The position numbers and the translations under genes are program-made. Positions 3,167 through 41,742 of a stretch of DNA of 64,000 nucleotides are shown here, piece by piece. Each line of letters begins with the position of its first letter. Within the stretch, counting starts at the first letter, position 1. Source of the DNA: Escherichia phage MET-P1-301; the sequence record PV700625; one strand, written 5' to 3'. The notes under the pieces are model-generated. The model was not told the origin of the DNA, did no database searches, and worked only from the letters and a program-made list of their open reading frames with translations.

Positions 3167-3724
3167 CTAAAAGTCTTTTAAATTGCGTTCTGTGAGGTTT
3201 GCCGTGATTTTATCCAGTAGGTCACAATACACAGAGCAATCCCCGCTATTCTGCACAATTTTCGCCATACTTAACAAATCTTCGTCAATATCTCCTAAAT
3301 TACGGTTAGTTGTATCAGGTACAAAGAAAGGCGCATATATTGCACTAAATTTCGTCGAGTGAAGGCCAACAATCCAATCCTTATCAAAGTATCCGGTAAA
3401 ACTGGCGATATCACTCATGTTGTCACAAGAATAATCGTCTTCTAGCTCTTCCTCTGGGATATCCATTTCAATGACAATCACGTCCTGCGTTTCCATTTGG
3501 AAAGCTGCCGTAATAAGTCCAGACTCTAAAGCGTTTTGAATGCAGCGTTCACGGATGTAAGAATCTTCCTCATCTTCCAGACATTCCGTTTTGATAACCT
3601 TGTTCATTGGGTAAACGTAGAAACAATCGTCCATGTAGGAGCAGTTCCAGATTCCTTCCGGCTTGTCGCCACCATTCAGCAGGTTTACAAAGTTTTTGAG
3701 GGTAGTCCCGTGATAGCATTTCAT
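3167..3724 (-). CDS. hypothetical early protein (185 aa), acidic
   Basis: ORF preceded by family-B leader cassette. Confidence 0.5.
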   Translation of the reverse strand: MKCYHGTTLKNFVNLLNGGDKPEGIWNCSYMDDCFYVYPMNKVIKTECLEDEEDSYIRERCIQNALESGLITAAFQMETQDVIVIEMDIPEEELEDDYSCDNMSDIASFTGYFDKDWIVGLHSTKFSAIYAPFFVPDTTNRNLGDIDEDLLSMAKIVQNSGDCSVYCDLLDKITANLTERNLKDF

Positions 3725-3810
3725 TTTTGAATCTCCAGTTTAGGATTTAGTGGTAAAGCTCTTTATCTGGGGCTTACTTTATCGAACTATAAGCCCCTTG
3801 TAAAGTACTT
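3725..3810 (-). promoter_or_regulatory. Early-gene leader cassette, family B
   Basis: Perfect hairpin GGGGCTTA-13 nt-TAAGCCCC, then AGATAAAGAGCTTTACCACTAAATCCTAAACTGGAGATTCAAAAATG. Confidence 0.55.
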
Positions 3811-4012
3811 TAACGATTATTTTTGACAACTTTTAAAACTGCAAGATAACCTAAGCAATAAGAATCACCGAAGAGAGTTCTACCCATGAAAGAATCCTCT
3901 TTGATATCCTTTGCAGTGACAGTTTTTTCTACGCCGTGGGAAAGGACTACATCCCCAACTTTGATGTCTTTGATGTGTGTTGTTTCAATGGTTAAGCCGT
4001 TAATATTAGCCA
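3810..4012 (-). CDS. hypothetical early protein (start refined to the ATG at 4012, 67 aa)
   Basis: The conserved leader/SD places the start at 4012; the longer track ORF to 4058 would read through the leader cassette. Confidence 0.45.
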
Positions 4013-4088
4013 TTTTAGAATCTCCTAGTTTAAGGATTTTACTTAGTGGGAAGGTCATTCCCTCCCCGTTGATGAGTAATTTAATCTA
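4013..4088 (-). promoter_or_regulatory. Early-gene leader cassette, family A
   Basis: GGGAAGGtcattCCCTCCCC hairpin plus SD context. Confidence 0.55.
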
Positions 4089-4163
4089 TCTAGAAATCAG
4101 TGTCAACAGTTTTTTAGAGTTCTGCGTAAATTGCGTCACAAATATCACGAAAATCATGATTTG

Positions 4164-4516
4164 TTAAATTACGTTGCAACCATGTTGCAAAAAGTCAGCA
4201 ATTGCAAAATTTGCGTCATACTCGACAGATAGCCACACTTTCACGGCAAAACGAAACATTTTTAAATCAAGCTCTTTATTCATTACCTTTGATTTGCCTA
4301 ACATGTCAGCCATTTCATATTGTGCACCGTCTAGCGTGATACCTGCTGCAACGTCAGCCAATGAGTTTTTACACTTTCAACGTCTAAGATAACACTTTGA
4401 ATCTTCCCGATAATATTGTGCAATGTCTCATCAGGTGCTGATGATGTAATAACATTAATCCGGTTAACGGTTAAACGTGCTTTTAAGATTGATAACTCAC
4501 GGTTATTAATAGTCAT
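4164..4516 (-). CDS. hypothetical early protein, two overlapping ORFs probably joined by a frameshift near 4340
   Basis: Track ORFs 4331-4516 and 4164-4361 overlap in different frames; family-B leader sits upstream of 4516. Confidence 0.35.
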
Positions 4517-4600
4517 TTTAGAATCTCCAATTTAGGATTTAGTGGTAAAGCTCTTTATCTGGGGCTTACTTTATCGAACTATAAGCCCCTTGTAAAGTAC
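4517..4600 (-). promoter_or_regulatory. Early-gene leader cassette, family B
   Basis: GGGGCTTA...TAAGCCCC hairpin plus SD context. Confidence 0.55.
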
Positions 4601-4629
4601 TTTATACTAAATGCAGCTTTTACCTTTTA

Positions 4630-4872
4630 CTATGATGTAACTTGCTGCGCTATTGCCGCATACATCTTGATAAATTCTGCGCAAACGGCCTTCGTAGTGG
4701 ACTTTCCAGCTAGTTGGAATCTTTTTCCCGTATCCGGTAGCAGTTTTTGGAGTCCTGCTACTTGCCAATCTAAGATATGTTGCTCAGCTTGTAAATCTTC
4801 AAAGTGCATCACACCATCAACATAGTGACGTAGAGTGACATTTAAAGTACGACCGTTGTTAGTAGTATACAT
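4630..4872 (-). CDS. hypothetical early protein (80 aa)
   Basis: ORF preceded only by the SD part of the cassette (catttttgaatctcctagtttaagg). Confidence 0.45.
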   Translation of the reverse strand: MYTTNNGRTLNVTLRHYVDGVMHFEDLQAEQHILDWQVAGLQKLLPDTGKRFQLAGKSTTKAVCAEFIKMYAAIAQQVTS

Positions 4873-16244: not shown

Positions 16245-16269
16245 ATTAAAAAGGCTCCCGTAGGAGCCT
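16245..16269 (-). terminator. Intrinsic terminator downstream of nadV
   Basis: AGGCTCCcgtaGGAGCCT followed on the minus strand by TTTTTAATTT. Confidence 0.6.
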
Positions 16270-16283
16270 ATTATCATATACTT

Positions 16284-18064
16284 TTAAAGCTGCTTGTCAA
16301 TATTATTTCGAATATCGCCAAGAGTTGTGTAGCCGAACTGCTCAGAGTCGCTAAAGACTAAACGTAAAGCACAAGCTGGATGCTCAAGTGCATCTGCAAA
16401 ACTCTGGAATCCATAGCCATCTACAGCTTTCAGATTCTCACCATCCCACATAGGGGCTACACCACCAAAAGCGGACTTCTTAATACCACTATCTGTTTTA
16501 GGGTCTTTTGCAAGCATAATCTCTTTACCACCAATGCTTGCAAGAGTTGCTTTGACAGCAAATGCAAAGGTGTCACGAGTCATGTACTGGTAAGTGTAAG
16601 AACCTACACCAAACACTACGTTAGAGCTTGCAAAACCCATTTCATACAAACGCTTCAGGATTTCGTTTGCACGTTCCAACGTGATAGAGTCACCATAGAT
16701 AAGGCCAATGTGCTCATCCAGTACCTTAAACCCTTTAGAGTTGATAGTTCCTCCAAAGATGTTATACAGGGTCTTAATGGCCCCATCAATCTCTGCTACA
16801 GGACGTGTTACAACGTTTGCAGAACCAACCATATAAGCATTTTTCAACATCACTGTATCAGCAACTTCAAAGTCTTCTCTGTCAACAACCATTTCGTAGC
16901 CTTCTGACAGTAGCCATCCAGCAATACCATAGTTGATGTTTTCAAGCTTCATGTTCAGAACAGCATTCAACATTGTGTCACTGGCTTCCAGCTTGCTTAG
17001 GTGCTCGTAATAAGCCTTCTTAGCACATTCTAAGTGGATTGCTTTATAACCTGTGACAATATGTACAGGGTCTCCAGAGTCAGGACGAATTACCAGTTTG
17101 CCATCACGTTCCATAATTTCTTTACGAAGTGCTGGTAAAATTTCTGACACAGTTCTCCAGAAGTTATAAGTGTCTGAAACAACACTTGCAATGCCAGTTG
17201 GGTAAGTTTCTGTTAAGAAACGACGGAAGGTTTGTAACTCACCTTTAAAGCGTCTTTCTTCTTCAATCAACTCATTACCACCTTCCCAAGCAATGTTTGC
17301 ACACATTACAGAGTGCTCAGTGGCTGGTACAGAACTACCAATATCAGAAATTGGGTAAGACTGTCCATAGATTCGTTTAGCCGTATACACAGCAGGAAAG
17401 CTATCAGTTCCTTTAAAGCTTGTTAAGTGACCTACAGCATTAAATGCGTCATCGGTAAAGCCGGACATACCACGCATAGCAAAGTCATGGCACTGATAAG
17501 GTAAATGTAATTCATTGTCGCAAGTAAGGTCAGCCCACTTCTTACAGATACGTTTGTAGTGCAATGCAATAGTCGCAATAGTGCAAGCCTTCCAAATCTC
17601 AGCAGAGAAAGCATCTTCCAGATAACCTGCTACCCAATGGAATCCTGAAACAGTGTTCTGGAAGACAATCATTGGGACACGCATCGGAACAACTGTGCCT
17701 TCTTCTACAGCGTATACTTCGACTGGCAGATAACCTAAGTCGTGAAGTGCTTCCCAATGCTCTCGACCAATAGCATCTTTGCCCAGAACACCGTTCATGA
17801 CTTCTAAGATTTCGTCAATTGCTTCTTTTTATCACGTTCAAAGAAAGTGGCATTCCAGTGGTCTATCAAGTAATCTTTAACAAAACGTTGAATACCAAAA
17901 GCTACTACACCGTCAATTGCTAAGGGGCTGTTAAACCATTTATCACTACGTGGTGTCAGGTTGAACATCAAGTACTCTGTTGCGCTAGGATACTGGTAAA
18001 CATGACCAGATTTGTAAGCATCTGCATTTAAACCTGCTGGTACTGCATAAAGTGATTTAGTCAT
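16284..18064 (-). CDS. nadV: Nicotinamide phosphoribosyltransferase (NadV/NAMPT), interrupted by an apparent frameshift at 17798-17830
   Basis: ORFs 17804-18064 and 16284-17798 together read as a full-length NAMPT-like protein (~590 aa); the junction sits in an A5 run (gataaaaagaag). Confidence 0.8.
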
Positions 18065-18109: not shown

Positions 18110-19005
18110 TTAATCAAGGTTTGCTACAGTAACTTGGCTATAATGTGTTAAGCCACGGTCTTTAGCTTCTCCTAAAGAGTTTGTAGTGTAGATATGGTCG
18201 ATACCATTGTCAAGAAGGTTTTCAACATCTTTAGAGAAGATACCATGTGTTACATAGAGTTCCACACGTTTTGCACCCACTTCACGAAGATGTTTAGCTG
18301 CTTCTATGAAGGTTCGACCACCATCACAGATATCATCCAGAATCATGACGGTTTTATCTGTCAAATCAACATCATCAAGGATTCGCATACCAGTAATTTC
18401 ACCAGTCTTAAGGTTGCGTACTTTAGACATTGTGATGTATGGTTTATCCACCTCTTTAGCGGTCTCTGCAACCTTCTTAGCAGCACCTGCATCTGGGGCT
18501 ACTAAGTAATCAACCAGTGGGTCATTTGCATAGTGGACTGCAATCTCCTTTGAGGAATACTCTGGAAGCAGTTAAACAGGTTATCTGGAACGTAACTGTG
18601 AGGGTCAACTGCACAGACTGCACCAAATCCCATTGCATTTACCTGTTTAGCAAAAACCTTTAAAGCTGCTGCGTCGCCTTTAAACATGTGACGGTCATAT
18701 CGTGCATTTGGTAAGTAGTAAAAGATGACAGTCTTTAAAGCATAATCATGAGGAATTAAATCATCAATTGCTTCTTTAGCAAGTGCCACAGCAAACAAAG
18801 TGTCCTTATCATAACCTTTTACAATCATAATCACATTGTTGATGGATGATGCTGCATAAGCGGTGAAATCAACAAACTCTGGTGAAAAGTGTCCACCAAT
18901 CTCACCAGAAGGGAATTGGATGATGTTAAACTCTTCTTCATGAGTCCCTTTAGTTGGTGAATGAACTGTAACACGGATAGATGTCTTCATAGTTTTCTCT
19001 CTCAA
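18110..19005 (-). CDS. prs: Ribose-phosphate pyrophosphokinase (PRPP synthetase), interrupted by an apparent frameshift near 18450-18560
   Basis: N-terminal piece has FPSGE and YLPNARYDRH; C-terminal piece has the PRPP-binding loop VMILDDICDGGRT. Confidence 0.75.
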
Positions 19006-19280
19006 TCAAAAGTTACGTTTGTTACTGCCATTGCAGTTTTGCATTTTGCAGGGTCTACAACGTGATAAAGTACACTACAGTTACCTGTGCTGTCTGGTAC
19101 AGGTTTAACCCATTGTTGCTTGACAGTTGGTTCGCCTAAGTCTTTGTAAGAACCATCTGTAAAGTTGTTTACCATCTCAAGTGCAATTGGCTCTGGAACA
19201 TGACCACGTATCATGTACATTTCACAACCATTACCTCCTTCACTGACTAATGGTAAAATCTCCCACTTTTCTTTAGCCAT
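19002..19280 (-). CDS. hypothetical protein (92 aa)
   Basis: ORF overlapping prs start. Confidence 0.4.
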   Translation of the reverse strand: MAKEKWEILPLVSEGGNGCEMYMIRGHVPEPIALEMVNNFTDGSYKDLGEPTVKQQWVKPVPDSTGNCSVLYHVVDPAKCKTAMAVTNVTFD

Positions 19281-19788
19281 TATAAGTTGCCCTATAAACT
19301 GTCTCGAACTTCAACAGGAGAGATATTGCCAAATCTGTATAGTTGTTGTCAAGCACATCTGGCATATTATTTTTGATATATCTCTCTTGCTCTTCATAGG
19401 TCATCTTAGGGGCACTTAAAAGGCTATCTCCTTGCTTCTGGTTATCAGCTTTAGTCTGAATAAACCAGTTTGCACAGTGATGTTCACCACCTTTTGTAAC
19501 AGGTTTGTGGTGGCCTAATGTGAAGGATTGACTGCCTGTGTATCTGCAAAGTTTATTGAGTACTGTAATGGTGTTCTTCACAACAAAACATTCATACAGG
19601 TTGTCTATGGTGTAGTGTGGATAATATCGAAATAATGCTCTTTCACGAGTACTCTCACGATTCCAGAGAATCATGTGATTGGAGTTGGAAGGGTCGTATT
19701 GGTGGGAGTCAATGAACTCTTGACGTTCCTCAAAACTGAGTCTTAACACTGACATTGCAGCAGAACGTTTCAGATTTGACAGATACAT
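19273..19788 (-). CDS. HNH-family homing endonuclease (free-standing)
   Basis: HNH-like core GHHKPVTKGGEHHCANWFIQTKADN. Confidence 0.5.
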   Translation of the reverse strand: MYLSNLKRSAAMSVLRLSFEERQEFIDSHQYDPSNSNHMILWNRESTRERALFRYYPHYTIDNLYECFVVKNTITVLNKLCRYTGSQSFTLGHHKPVTKGGEHHCANWFIQTKADNQKQGDSLLSAPKMTYEEQERYIKNNMPDVLDNNYTDLAISLLLKFETVYRATYNG

Positions 19789-19796
19789 ATTATCTC

Positions 19797-19826
19797 CAAA
19801 ATAAAAGGGAACCTTTACAGTTCCCT
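19797..19826 (-). terminator. Intrinsic terminator
   Basis: GGGAACtgtaaagGTTCCC followed by TTTTATTTT on the minus strand. Confidence 0.6.
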
Positions 19827-19838
19827 TATAGTATCTGC

Positions 19839-20159
19839 TTACTGAGCTACTTTCAAGATTCTTGTGAATGGAATTTCACTTTCTTCCATTAACTCTCTAG
19901 TTTCTTTGGTAACTTTCACAAAGTTATCTAGGCAGATAATCTTCTTATCTTTCTTACTATAGGTTAATTTAACCTTTTCAATATCTTTCTCAGAGCTTTT
20001 CTCTTCATTGAAGAGTTTTACAGCCTCTTTGAATGGGAGATATGAGCCATCATTATCACTAATGAATCCTGTACCACAATAGTAGGAGTTATGCTCTCTA
20101 GCCATAAACTGGCACAGTAAGAAAATCTGTAATTTACGAGTGTTATAAACTTTGCTCAT
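19839..20159 (-). CDS. hypothetical protein (106 aa)
   Basis: ORF. Confidence 0.4.
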   Translation of the reverse strand: MSKVYNTRKLQIFLLCQFMAREHNSYYCGTGFISDNDGSYLPFKEAVKLFNEEKSSEKDIEKVKLTYSKKDKKIICLDNFVKVTKETRELMEESEIPFTRILKVAQ

Positions 20160-20443: not shown

Positions 20444-20764
20444 TTAAAGTTTAATACAGAACTTATGAAGTTCTTCTTCAGTAACTGTGACAACTTTATC
20501 ATCAACACGTAAGTTTGTCGCGTAAAAATTTGAGAAATGCGCTTTGTGTTTTACTTTAAATACTCCAGCAGCCTCAATACATTTCAATGCTTCCATACCA
20601 GTGGAGTCAAACAGACTTTTAGTATAGACTTTCCACTCTTCAATGGTTTCTGGATTTACTTTGTAACTACCAAATAGTGACATGTTACAGTACGACATAA
20701 CAAACTCACCGCGTTTGAATCCACCGCTACTCTGCTCTCCATTGACAGTCACCTTGCCAGCCAT
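20444..20764 (-). CDS. hypothetical protein (start set at internal Met to avoid nrdG overlap)
   Basis: Track ORF 20444-20845 overlaps the nrdG 3' end by 119 nt. Confidence 0.35.
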   Translation of the reverse strand: MAGKVTVNGEQSSGGFKRGEFVMSYCNMSLFGSYKVNPETIEEWKVYTKSLFDSTGMEALKCIEAAGVFKVKHKAHFSNFYATNLRVDDKVVTVTEEELHKFCIKL

Positions 20765-21212
20765 ATTCTTTTCTCCACAAGTTTTGGTTGTCTGAACCAC
20801 GATATGGTTTATTCGTTGGTTTAGAAGCATCATACTTACCATCAATCACCACGTCAACATATTTCATCACATCTAAGTGGATTTTTTCGTGCAGTTGAAA
20901 ACCTGTCCAAAGCCATATAGACTTTTCTGGATAAACAGTTTTAATACGCTTGCATATGTTGGTAACCTCTTGAATATTTCTATCATCCAGAGGCTCTCCA
21001 CCGAGTATTGACAACCCACTGATGGCCTCATCATCCATTAACTTAATGATACCGTAGAGGTTTGCATAAGTAAACTCTTTACCAGCATTAAACTTCCAAG
21101 ACTCCCTGTTAAAGCAGCCTTCACAGTGATGCTTACAACCAGCTACGAAGAGGCTTACACGAACCCCTTCACCATTAGCTGTGTCAAATGGCCTAATCTC
21201 CATGTAATTCAT
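20727..21212 (-). CDS. nrdG: Anaerobic ribonucleotide reductase activating protein (radical SAM)
   Basis: CKHHCEGC cluster near the N-terminus; size ~160 aa; adjacent to nrdD. Confidence 0.8.
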   Translation of the reverse strand: MNYMEIRPFDTANGEGVRVSLFVAGCKHHCEGCFNRESWKFNAGKEFTYANLYGIIKLMDDEAISGLSILGGEPLDDRNIQEVTNICKRIKTVYPEKSIWLWTGFQLHEKIHLDVMKYVDVVIDGKYDASKPTNKPYRGSDNQNLWRKEYGWQGDCQWRAE

Positions 21213-30680: not shown

Positions 30681-30773
30681 TCATACACGGCTCCCAATTA
30701 TATTTCTTGAAAGAGAAATTATCTTTTGGATTTCTCTCTTGATAAGCTATCCAGAAATGCTGTTCCATTAGCT

Positions 30774-40275: not shown

Positions 40276-40336
40276 TTAGTATTGACAAGGTGCTCATGGA
40301 AGAGTACCTTATACAATATCTTATATAGGAGCGATT

Positions 40337-40546
40337 ATGAGCCACCGTGGAAGAACCCATGCAGCAATGATGAAAGGTGCTTCAAAGGAAACTATCAAGA
40401 ATCGTAAGCAGAAGTTGTTTGAGAGAATAAACAGGTTGATTGACAATTCATCTCTTTCAGGTTCTGAGAAGGTTTTCTTGAAAGGTAATCTGAAAAGCAT
40501 TGCACAAGAGCTTGTAGATATTGAATATTGGAGACATCAAAAATGA
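40337..40546 (+). CDS. hypothetical protein (69 aa)
   Basis: ORF. Confidence 0.4.
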   Translation: MSHRGRTHAAMMKGASKETIKNRKQKLFERINRLIDNSSLSGSEKVFLKGNLKSIAQELVDIEYWRHQK

Positions 40547-40761
40547 CACTTGCAGACGTTATTCAGCAACTTCATGATAACTGCTACACTCCAGAGTTAA
40601 TTCAGGAGATGTCCATTGTAGTCATGCCTAGCAAGTTCGTAAAAACCTTTAACAACGACGCTTTAAGGTCTACACACATCCTTATCGTTGACGGTAAGAT
40701 TGCAAAAGACCGTACAGGTGTTCTTAAGGGTGAACGTATTGATATTCTGGAGTTGCTATGA
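40528..40761 (+). CDS. hypothetical protein (77 aa)
   Basis: ORF. Confidence 0.4.
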   Translation: METSKMTLADVIQQLHDNCYTPELIQEMSIVVMPSKFVKTFNNDALRSTHILIVDGKIAKDRTGVLKGERIDILELL

Positions 40762-40893
40762 AGAAGATGTACAGTCTCTGGGGAAGGGTTGGTAAAGGTT
40801 TTGACTGGACACTTCTTCGTTCAAACGTTAAACGTAGTGAATTACCAGAACTCATCACTCACTATTTAAAAACATACAGAGAGGTAGACTATC

Positions 40894-41151
40894 GTGAACA
40901 ATAAGGTTAAGAGTTGTGTGAAAGCAATGGTTGCACTTGGAGTAATTTTTCTGGCTGGCTGCAACCCATCTTATGAAAACAAAGATGCTTCTTACAGCCT
41001 CCCTCCAGAGATGCAAGACTGCAAAATCTACAAACTCAATGGTGATGCTATAAGCAGAGATATTGTTGTTGTCAGATGCCCAAACTCTCAAACAACAACA
41101 TCTTATAGCTATGGCAAAAATGGTCAATCACATACCACGGTTATTGAGTGA
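40894..41151 (+). CDS. small lipoprotein (85 aa)
   Basis: Signal peptide with lipobox (VIFLAGC). Confidence 0.45.
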   Translation: MNNKVKSCVKAMVALGVIFLAGCNPSYENKDASYSLPPEMQDCKIYKLNGDAISRDIVVVRCPNSQTTTSYSYGKNGQSHTTVIE

Positions 41152-41161
41152 GGTTTTTACG

Positions 41162-41368
41162 ATGGAAGTATTAGTAAACTATATCTATCGTTATGATGTT
41201 GTTCACTCCACTACAACTGTAGCTCAACGAAATCCAATAGTTCCACGAGAAGGTGAGCTTGTTCGCATTGATGGTTGGACTTACACTGTGGAAAGCATCA
41301 TTCATAAGTTTGATGTTGCTGGTGATGTTCAAGTTATCGACGTGGAAATTGGTGGTAAGAGAAAATGA
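41162..41368 (+). CDS. hypothetical protein (start taken at the ATG at 41162)
   Basis: Track ORF 41063-41368 overlaps the lipoprotein; the internal ATG is non-overlapping. Confidence 0.35.
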   Translation: MEVLVNYIYRYDVVHSTTTVAQRNPIVPREGELVRIDGWTYTVESIIHKFDVAGDVQVIDVEIGGKRK

Positions 41369-41523
41369 AATCTAAGCAAACAATGACAGATGCAATCTTC
41401 ACAGTACACAGTTTCGAAAGGTTGCACATTAAAGATGTAAAAATACACCAAAATGCGTTGTACATTTCATTAAAAGACGTAGTGAGAGGTCTTATATAAA
41501 ATCTGACACAGGCGAGAGTACAA

Positions 41524-41742
41524 ATGGGTAAAGATAATAAATTTCAGAACGCAGTTCTTACAGAAGATGGTGAGCTTGAAACATTCATTCTTCGTGTTGA
41601 TGGTAAGTTATTCCGGTGTCGTTGTGGGTCAAACTGTTTCCATAAACCAGATAAAAACGACTTAGAGCTTTACGCATGTAATGCTTGCAACACTTGGTAT
41701 CACTCAGAGGTTAAAAATGACAATTCTGTACAAACAAAATAA
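41524..41742 (+). CDS. hypothetical Cys-rich zinc-ribbon protein (72 aa)
   Basis: CRCGSNC...CNACNTW. Confidence 0.4.
   Translation: MGKDNKFQNAVLTEDGELETFILRVDGKLFRCRCGSNCFHKPDKNDLELYACNACNTWYHSEVKNDNSVQTK

Follow-up and report, generated by a model that had tools for sequence, protein, structure and literature searches.

The gene considered here, ORF171, lies on the minus strand of a 64,000-nucleotide stretch of Escherichia phage MET-P1-301 (record PV700625; the whole stretch is referred to as the window), where the listing of open reading frames (ORFs) gives a single ORF with an ATG start at 19273..19788. Its product, of 171 amino acids and ~20 kDa, is the ortholog of Felix01p229, also catalogued as phrog_3500 and VOG1451. 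A Shine-Dalgarno motif, GGAG, is found 6-9 nt 5' of the ATG, and the peptide GHHKPVTKGGEHHCANWFIQTKADN corresponds in the translation to residues 92-116 (nt 19441-19515); both the ORF and this peptide exist as reported in a preliminary description, which had taken the peptide for the core of a candidate HNH homing endonuclease. The gene is located in the early nucleotide-metabolism region, as the first gene after a conserved terminator-like hairpin, with p227 upstream and with p233 and prs- and nadV-like genes downstream. The reading favoured here, which sequence comparison and a structural model make moderately probable, is that ORF171 encodes a metal-dependent DNA nuclease or nickase of the HNH type, accessory and dispensable, that is inherited vertically and is not a homing endonuclease.

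ORF171 is a real gene and not a chance ORF, because phrog_3500 aligns with it from end to end (expect value, E, 9.7e-92), because tblastn finds it as one copy per record in 428 phage records, and because the pairwise ratio of non-synonymous to synonymous substitution rates (dN/dS) against the orthologs of DE17, Barry, BPS17W1 and Mordin amounts to 0.05-0.16; these comparisons point to strong purifying selection across subfamilies. The 6.5-kb stretch around the gene is matched by 258 phage records, 183 of them covering at least 80% of it, mostly at 90-99% identity, and since almost all of these records belong to Felixounavirus (FelixO1-like phages, Ounavirinae), the window is assigned to a phage of that genus. 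In annotated relatives the gene appears as a 516-nt 'hypothetical protein' homologous to Felix01p229, and this was the GenBank label of its orthologs in every record inspected. The family is small, restricted to phages and catalogued as of 'unknown function'. In VpaE1_ev78 (3639-4424) ORF171 and p233 are annotated as a single 786-nt gene, and in the metagenomic protein P0002 p227 is fused to ORF171, both cases being probably artefacts of 1-nt indels and not real fusions.

The predicted beta-beta-alpha-metal (HNH) core comprises residues 89-119 (19432..19524, minus strand), as delimited by an AlphaFold2 model and by the invariant columns of the family alignment. Throughout this alignment of 28 sequences, which reaches down to 22% identity, H93, G100, G101 and N107 never change and at least 90% of the members have G92, H103 and N116, so that the HNH-like residues cannot be put down to chance similarity in a single sequence. 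The His-Asn-Asn triad H93/N107/N116 is present with spacings of 14 and 9 residues, the H-14-N-9-N spacing being also that of H840, N854 and N863 in the HNH domain of SpCas9, and an acidic residue at position 115, adjoining N116, is kept in most members. The model, built on the family alignment (predicted local distance difference test, pLDDT, 90.7; predicted template modelling score, pTM, 0.87), contains beta1 at residues 89-93, beta2 at 108-112 and a helix at 113-119, the sole hairpin-plus-helix of a protein that is elsewhere all-helical. H93 is the last residue of beta1, the GG loop holds G100, G101 and H103, N107 precedes beta2 and D115-N116 are situated in the helix; this is the layout of the beta-beta-alpha-metal topology, with the His at the C-terminal end of beta1.

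Profile comparisons lead to the same superfamily, and fold comparisons point that way as well, though in the PDB at scores that are not significant. An exhaustive search of 1.8 billion representative proteins with the family hidden Markov model gave 18 clusters only; the cluster protein P0055 was matched at E 9.4e-5, and P0055 itself matches the Pfam models HNH_5 (E 8e-13) and HNH (E 9e-12). With two exceptions (an unnamed family, matched by 2 members, and PAPS reductase, matched by 1), the secondary PHROG matches of the family were to HNH or endonuclease VII families; phrog_9645 was matched by 10 of the 28 members, with a best E of 4.9e-6. When the model was compared with the PDB by Foldseek, 10 of the 11 top matches were HNH domains (all at E of at least 0.32, probability up to 0.25 and query-normalised template modelling score, TMq, up to 0.27), with Cas9 HNH domains and the Gme HNH nickase (27% identity) at the top and McrA lower. 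In BFVD the family itself came first, followed by 'HNH endonuclease' proteins of T4-like phages (TM 0.52-0.56). As motif, predicted fold, the profile link to P0055 and the PHROG cross-matches agree, ORF171 is considered to have an HNH-type core, and it would be a divergent member of the HNH superfamily for which catalysis is plausible.

Several results weigh against this assignment. No Pfam HNH match was obtained for ORF171 of the window even at E<=1, and the NCBIfam search of the protein found nothing. Within the family, PF01844 was touched by 4 of the 28 members (best E 0.0085) and HNH_5 was matched by 1 of the 28, in both cases below the gathering score, and the PDB fold matches all had E>0.3 and a whole-chain TM<0.3. 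Zinc-binding cysteines (Cys4/Cys3His sites) were not found in ORF171, and no feature of its sequence points to a substrate. Furthermore, Gly (G92, at least 90% of the members) stands where a metal-binding Asp/His normally precedes the catalytic His, 'DH' being kept only in P0052, the most divergent member, and because of this replacement the activity of ORF171 is not assured. The HNH core of the preliminary description is thus upheld at the superfamily level, by motif, predicted fold, the link to P0055 and PHROG cross-matches, and falls below every curated HNH threshold; the profile search that it had proposed as a check gives no curated Pfam or NCBIfam hit above threshold, but the superfamily link allows the interpretation to survive that outcome.

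The Gly in place of the metal-binding Asp, found in almost all members, together with the curated HNH profiles that are not reached and the lack of a zinc site, would also suit a protein with an HNH fold but no catalytic activity, retained for binding DNA or protein, for instance as a regulator or inhibitor of a host function. This alternative is unlikely: H93, N107 and N116 hardly vary, if at all, even among very divergent members, which is unexpected for a dead site, the acidic residue 115 beside N116 is conserved in most of them, and a metal site with a single Asn suffices in Serratia nuclease and I-PpoI, enzymes of the His-Me finger type in which it can be seen that Asp/His before the His is not universal.

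HNH enzymes are nucleic-acid nucleases. For ORF171 as an active nuclease, H93 at the end of beta1 would be the general base, N107 would brace the hairpin, and the helix residue N116, probably with help from its neighbour D/E115, would bind a hydrated divalent cation; a phosphodiester bond in DNA would then be cut or nicked. Substrate binding might be supplied by the family-specific helical regions on both sides of the core. The N-terminal one, all-helical, covers residues 1-88 (19525..19788, minus strand), with R22, Y31, R48, Y55, D62, E66 and N78 conserved and no known-domain match; the C-terminal one, taken from the alignment and the AlphaFold2 model, covers residues 120-171 (19276..19431, minus strand), with K128, Q134, Y137 and Y165 conserved. 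The ~140 helical residues flanking the core gave no domain match, and the isoelectric point, which ranges from 5.2 to 9.7 across the family, says nothing on DNA binding. The N-terminal helices of residues 16-66 (19590-19743, LSFEERQEFIDSHQYDPSNSNHMIL) resemble the B-domain motif of Staphylococcus protein A, whose repeats were the sole matches in a PDB sequence profile search with the family; the total E was 5.8e-9, yet each repeat had E>1, the sum being inflated by five near-identical repeats, and the likeness was rejected as probably a chance helix-loop-helix similarity. Comparison of the family alignment by hhalign with P0055, with the MobE-like protein of Barry and with the HNH_3 protein of VpaE1_ev78 gave probabilities of 0.2-12%, which are uninformative, the templates being single sequences, and when homologs were sought a third time, with a broader ORF171 profile, no further annotated relatives came up.

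With regard to the neighbours, p233 (Felix01p233, phrog_4726; 92 aa; 19002..19280, minus strand) is located downstream of ORF171 and overlaps its stop by 8 nt. After a gap of 11 nt it is followed by the prs-like gene (18110..18990) and then by the nadV-like gene (16284..18064), both on the minus strand; the preliminary description had rightly seen these two genes adjoining ORF171, and each is frameshifted by 1 nt in the window. Each thus appears as two ORFs, one nucleotide of an A-run being deleted when compared with DE17, near 17831 in nadV (GACAAAAAAG vs GA-TAAAAAG in the window/DE17 comparison) and near 18551 in prs (CTCAAAAGG vs CTC-AAAGG in the same comparison). These frameshifts could be homopolymer sequencing errors or a genuine inactivation of the counter-defence operon. 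Bas63 (JohannRWettstein) matches the ORF171 region at 92% identity, and there prs and nadV make up NARP1, the operon Adps/Namat that serves counter-defence (10.1101/2024.02.11.579819). The window pair is likewise Adps and Namat of NARP1 and not a PRPP (phosphoribosyl pyrophosphate) synthetase plus Nampt, so that the name 'NAD salvage genes', used in the preliminary description, does not suit what is not classical NAD salvage (10.1101/2024.02.11.579819).

The preliminary description had further suggested that the prs/nadV module could be mobilised by gene conversion driven by ORF171, which would then be a free-standing HNH homing endonuclease that, when related phages infect together, cuts their ORF-less allele, copies itself into it and co-converts the adjacent prs/nadV. 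The HNH-type core, the dispensability of the gene, the existence of empty alleles in a few isolates without ORF171, and the mobile HNH genes that Felixounaviruses carry in the same region (VpaE1_ev78 and SUSP1 have one in the prs/nadV gap; Barry and SUSP1 have one after nrdD) would be in keeping with such an enzyme. The distribution of the gene is against it. At 60% identity or more, a copy of ORF171 is present in about 246 of the about 257 records holding the neighbourhood, i.e. it is near-universal and not sporadic. Felixounavirus, Mooglevirus, Suspvirus and Kolesnikvirus all share the order p227-ORF171-(p233)-prs-nadV, as do Wc4-1 and a relative of metagenomic origin with 35% identity, and the locus is unchanged down to 35-44% identity. 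Divergence matches that of the flanking genes: 76% identity for ORF171 vs 52-88% in Mordin, 44% vs 36-50% in Roscha1 and 41% vs 35-63% in Wc4-1. From this fixed syntenic locus, the divergence that tracks the flanks and the dN/dS given above, it is concluded that ORF171 is not mobile; its vertical inheritance is read from comparisons of identity and synteny with the window protein.

The alleles lacking ORF171 are heterogeneous. In NBSal004 both ORF171 and p233 are lost and NARP1 is kept; in ESCO45 everything from nadV through ORF171 is lost; and in BPS17W1 p233 alone is cleanly lost, with ORF171 intact. In Salmonella phage S19cd (4001-5091) a 723-nt gene for an N6_N4 DNA adenine methylase (Pfam E 8.5e-32) is inserted, replacing ORF171 codons 39-171 and the first two thirds of p233, NARP1 being kept; judging by its annotation, SP4 SHa-2019 probably has the same methylase replacement. 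The alleles without ORF171 are therefore unrelated events with differing end points, and not one clean insertion site. In S19cd the event amounts to a swap of the putative nuclease for a methylase. A toxin-immunity pair, made up of the ORF171 nuclease and the overlapping acidic p233 as its inhibitor, was also considered and rejected, since BPS17W1 keeps an intact ORF171 without p233.

Furthermore, a Pfam search found no NUMOD, AP2, IENR1 or helix-turn-helix target-recognition module in ORF171. The true homing endonucleases found in the group do carry DNA-binding modules: they are sporadic and combine HNH_3 (up to 1e-19) with AP2, or a colicin-DNase-like domain with NUMOD3. A 163-aa HNH_3 homing endonuclease is located between adps and namat in VpaE1_ev78 (2246-2737, with a weak AP2) and in SUSP1 (4188-4679), and a MobE-like NUMOD3 endonuclease follows nrdD in Barry and SUSP1. 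HY02 carries an HNH_3 homing endonuclease beside its polymerase; its two HNH_3 homing endonucleases (gp104 and gp093) are absent from the window at 30689-30729 and 40279-41713, the latter interval holding ~1.4 kb without alignment to HY02. None of the real homing endonucleases of the group, of either the HNH_3+AP2 or the NUMOD3 type, is present in the window. The HNH_3 and MobE-like genes, and not ORF171, are the candidates for endonuclease-driven conversion of NARP1. With fixed synteny, flank-tracking divergence, purifying selection and no DNA-binding module, homing by ORF171, and with it the mobilisation of prs/nadV, is regarded as highly improbable.

The labels 'HNH endonuclease', 'putative HNH homing endonuclease' and 'endonuclease' that are met with in this neighbourhood (BPS17W1, ESCO45, radambza, fjerdesal, Silverhawkium) are placed on a different gene, p227 (Felix01p227; 19839-20159, minus strand), located upstream of ORF171, whose 106-aa product matches Pfam DUF7390 (E 2e-15) and gave no Pfam HNH match; p227 is deleted in HY02. 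Further along, an ORF at 20444-20845 on the minus strand, which matches phrog_5082 (E 6.8e-43), overlaps nrdG at its 3' end. The annotations of NBSal004, BPS17W1, Mordin and SUSP1 include this ORF, which is absent from DE17 and Barry.

As regards the need for the gene, the SUSP1 ortholog, agp073, was scored 'Not Fit' (-0.29) in a transcriptome-wide CRISPRi-ART screen, and so were p233, adps and namat of the same phage (PMC11879866, supplement 16). Because of this result and of the natural deletions and replacements in NBSal004, ESCO45 and S19cd, ORF171 is dispensable in the laboratory. Purifying selection and dispensability together lead to the view of a conditionally useful accessory gene, whose product might act on host or competing DNA or process phage DNA.

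ORF171 is also found in Stephanstirmvirinae (Phapecoctavirus and Justusliebigvirus). In Phapecoctavirus the homolog is directly upstream of a UvrD-type helicase gene, and in Justusliebigvirus one gene separates the two, near ribonucleotide-reductase genes; in Justusliebigvirus alia prs and nadV are ~70 kb away from the homolog, on the other strand. Namat is found in 2022 phage records vs 428 with ORF171, and among the Escherichia-named records 222 have ORF171 vs 190 with Namat. No Phapecoctavirus record was found among the 125 strong matches to the Namat of alia, and from these matches and the record counts Phapecoctavirus appears to be without Namat. The synteny comparison thus finds ORF171 conserved regardless of nadV/prs, 70 kb away or apparently absent, an outcome that the preliminary description had itself named as refuting, and on this count its interpretation is refuted. 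In T4-like genomes (Citrobacter phage Ci1 and a 167-kb metagenomic contig, L024) the homolog is ~2 kb from a Nampt gene. In the stretch 4661-14263 of L024 Nampt comes first, followed in order by two Y00F genes, three small ORFs, the homolog of ORF171, a SprT-like gene, Endonuclease_7 (gp49) and NrdD, the homolog being 3 kb from the true Endonuclease_7 gene and nrdD. A Nampt-type gene thus recurs near ORF171 in an unrelated phage family, the arrangement in Ci1 being like that of L024.

The helicase genes next to or near the homologs, the weak matches of 6 of the 28 family members to phrog_1035, 'endonuclease VII' (best E 4.1e-5), and the fact that no resolvase is listed in the annotated genome of Felixounavirus HY02 could be taken as signs of a structure-specific recombination or repair nuclease, i.e. 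an endonuclease VII-like resolvase or a flap or branch nuclease, possibly working with a helicase. Such a function is very unlikely. The L024 contig holds both the homolog and a bona fide Endonuclease_7, endonuclease VII structures were not among the PDB fold matches, the deletion phages are viable and the knock-down has no fitness cost; loss of the resolvase in T4 blocks packaging. An ORF171 equivalent to endonuclease VII, or acting as the essential Holliday-junction resolvase, was accordingly rejected, on account of its dispensability and of the T4-like genome with both genes.

The transcription context of ORF171 deserves separate treatment, since it bears on a possible link with NARP1. A terminator-like hairpin with a 9-bp stem and a TTATTTT tail (19805..19827, minus strand) is situated directly upstream of the ribosome-binding site of ORF171; a weak sigma-70-like promoter match, TTGAAA-17-TACTAT (9/12, 19828..19856, minus strand), which is a consensus match only, abuts it; and a further terminator-like hairpin (16252..16269, minus strand) follows just after nadV, where the annotators of Barry mark a terminator. 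The consensus scan for promoters and terminators gave no enrichment over shuffles, and only the conservation of the hairpin across genera carries weight. A hairpin with a T-run 5' of the ribosome-binding site of ORF171 occurs in four Ounavirinae genera, with Mooglevirus, Kolesnikvirus and Wc4-1 among its carriers, and the annotators of Mordin mark a terminator at the position equivalent to 19805..19827. The stems are unrelated among Ounavirinae (AAGGGAAC/GTTCCCTT, GAGGACTC/GAGTCCTT, GGCTGCCC/GGGTGGCC), the position being kept and the sequence not. The upstream hairpin, the 8-nt overlap, the 11-nt gap and the terminator after namat make plausible a four-gene transcription unit, ORF171-p233-adps-namat, that would be closed by the hairpin after nadV.

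Such a unit suggests that ORF171, with or without p233, could be an accessory enzyme of the NARP1 counter-defence unit, co-expressed with Adps/Namat and acting on a nucleotide or nucleic-acid component of immunity or feeding the pathway. In all Ounavirinae examined ORF171 comes first after the position-conserved hairpin, p233, adps and namat follow in tight packing, and the terminator after namat is the next one; the Nampt gene near the homolog in Ci1 and L024, and the prs and nadV that Justusliebigvirus also encodes, point the same way. The enzyme type is less favourable to it, HNH enzymes being known as nucleic-acid nucleases. NARP1, moreover, works as a two-gene operon (10.1101/2024.02.11.579819), and it is kept without ORF171 in NBSal004 and S19cd, although other NARP1 loci recruit helper enzymes, RyDEP and macro-domain phosphatases (10.64898/2026.05.28.727677; 10.64898/2026.01.28.702374). 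In Justusliebigvirus 70 kb separate the homolog from NARP1, the two being on opposite strands and the homolog close to the UvrD-type helicase, Phapecoctavirus has ORF171 without apparent Namat, as judged above, and the record totals for Namat and ORF171 differ widely. A consistent linkage to adps/namat wherever ORF171 occurs was not upheld, the genes being linked in Ounavirinae and 70 kb apart in alia. An accessory role in the NARP1 unit is rather unlikely, and a shade less likely is the more specific proposal, made by analogy with the RyDEP and macro-domain helpers, that ORF171, perhaps with p233, is an HNH-fold NARP1 helper, transcribed with adps and namat from a promoter of its own behind the conserved terminator, that would act on a nucleic-acid or nucleotide component of NAD+-depleting defence; a loose association of ORF171 with NAD genes may exist.

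The HNH-type reading of ORF171 provides a fold-level assignment for phrog_3500/VOG1451/Felix01p229, a family matched in 428 deposited phage genomes and spanning therapy-relevant Felixounavirus and Stephanstirmvirinae phages. The public annotation inspected does not have this HNH call, its HNH endonuclease labels in the neighbourhood belonging to p227, and the tempting story that ORF171 mobilises the NARP1 anti-defence genes is wrong. Should a role in host-DNA breakdown or in counter-defence be true, the model phages Bas63 and SUSP1 would offer in ORF171 an accessory factor that is small, dispensable and easy to test.

In comparison with known systems, the nearest curated models are Pfam HNH_5 (PF14279) and HNH (PF01844), with which ORF171 shares the predicted beta-beta-alpha core, the His at the end of beta1, the GG loop, the bracing Asn and the helix Asn, in an H-N-N variant; it differs from them in its sub-threshold scores, the Gly before the His, the lack of a Cys4/Cys3His zinc site and the ~140 family-specific helical residues. 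The best structural matches are the HNH domain of Cas9 and the Geobacter Gme HNH nicking endonuclease (5vgb, 7mpz, 4h9d), with the same H..N..N spacing and, for Gme, 27% identity over 75 columns; these matches have E of 0.3-1 and TM <0.3 on the query, only the core being superposed and not the flanking helices of ORF171. The free-standing homing endonucleases of FelixO1-like and T4-like phages (HNH_3+AP2, or MobE-like colicin-DNase+NUMOD3) share with ORF171 the superfamily, the small size and the genome region, whereas ORF171 is near-universal and syntenic, has no AP2 or NUMOD3 and is similar to them only at the motif. T4 endonuclease VII (gp49, Endonuclease_7) is a His-Me finger protein of similar size, encoded near nrdD and weakly linked to ORF171 by the PHROG cross-matches of 6 family members; unlike it, ORF171 has neither zinc site nor dimerisation domain, is dispensable, and coexists with the endonuclease VII gene in one T4-like genome. 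Finally, T4 endonuclease II (DenA), which has a GIY-YIG fold unrelated to ORF171, is a functional analogue only: it is a small, non-essential phage nuclease, as ORF171 would be, and its gene is located beside ribonucleotide-reductase genes. By analogy with DenA, which starts host-DNA breakdown in T4 and whose loss is tolerated in the laboratory (10.1101/2025.11.05.686725), the degradation of host DNA may be conjectured for ORF171.

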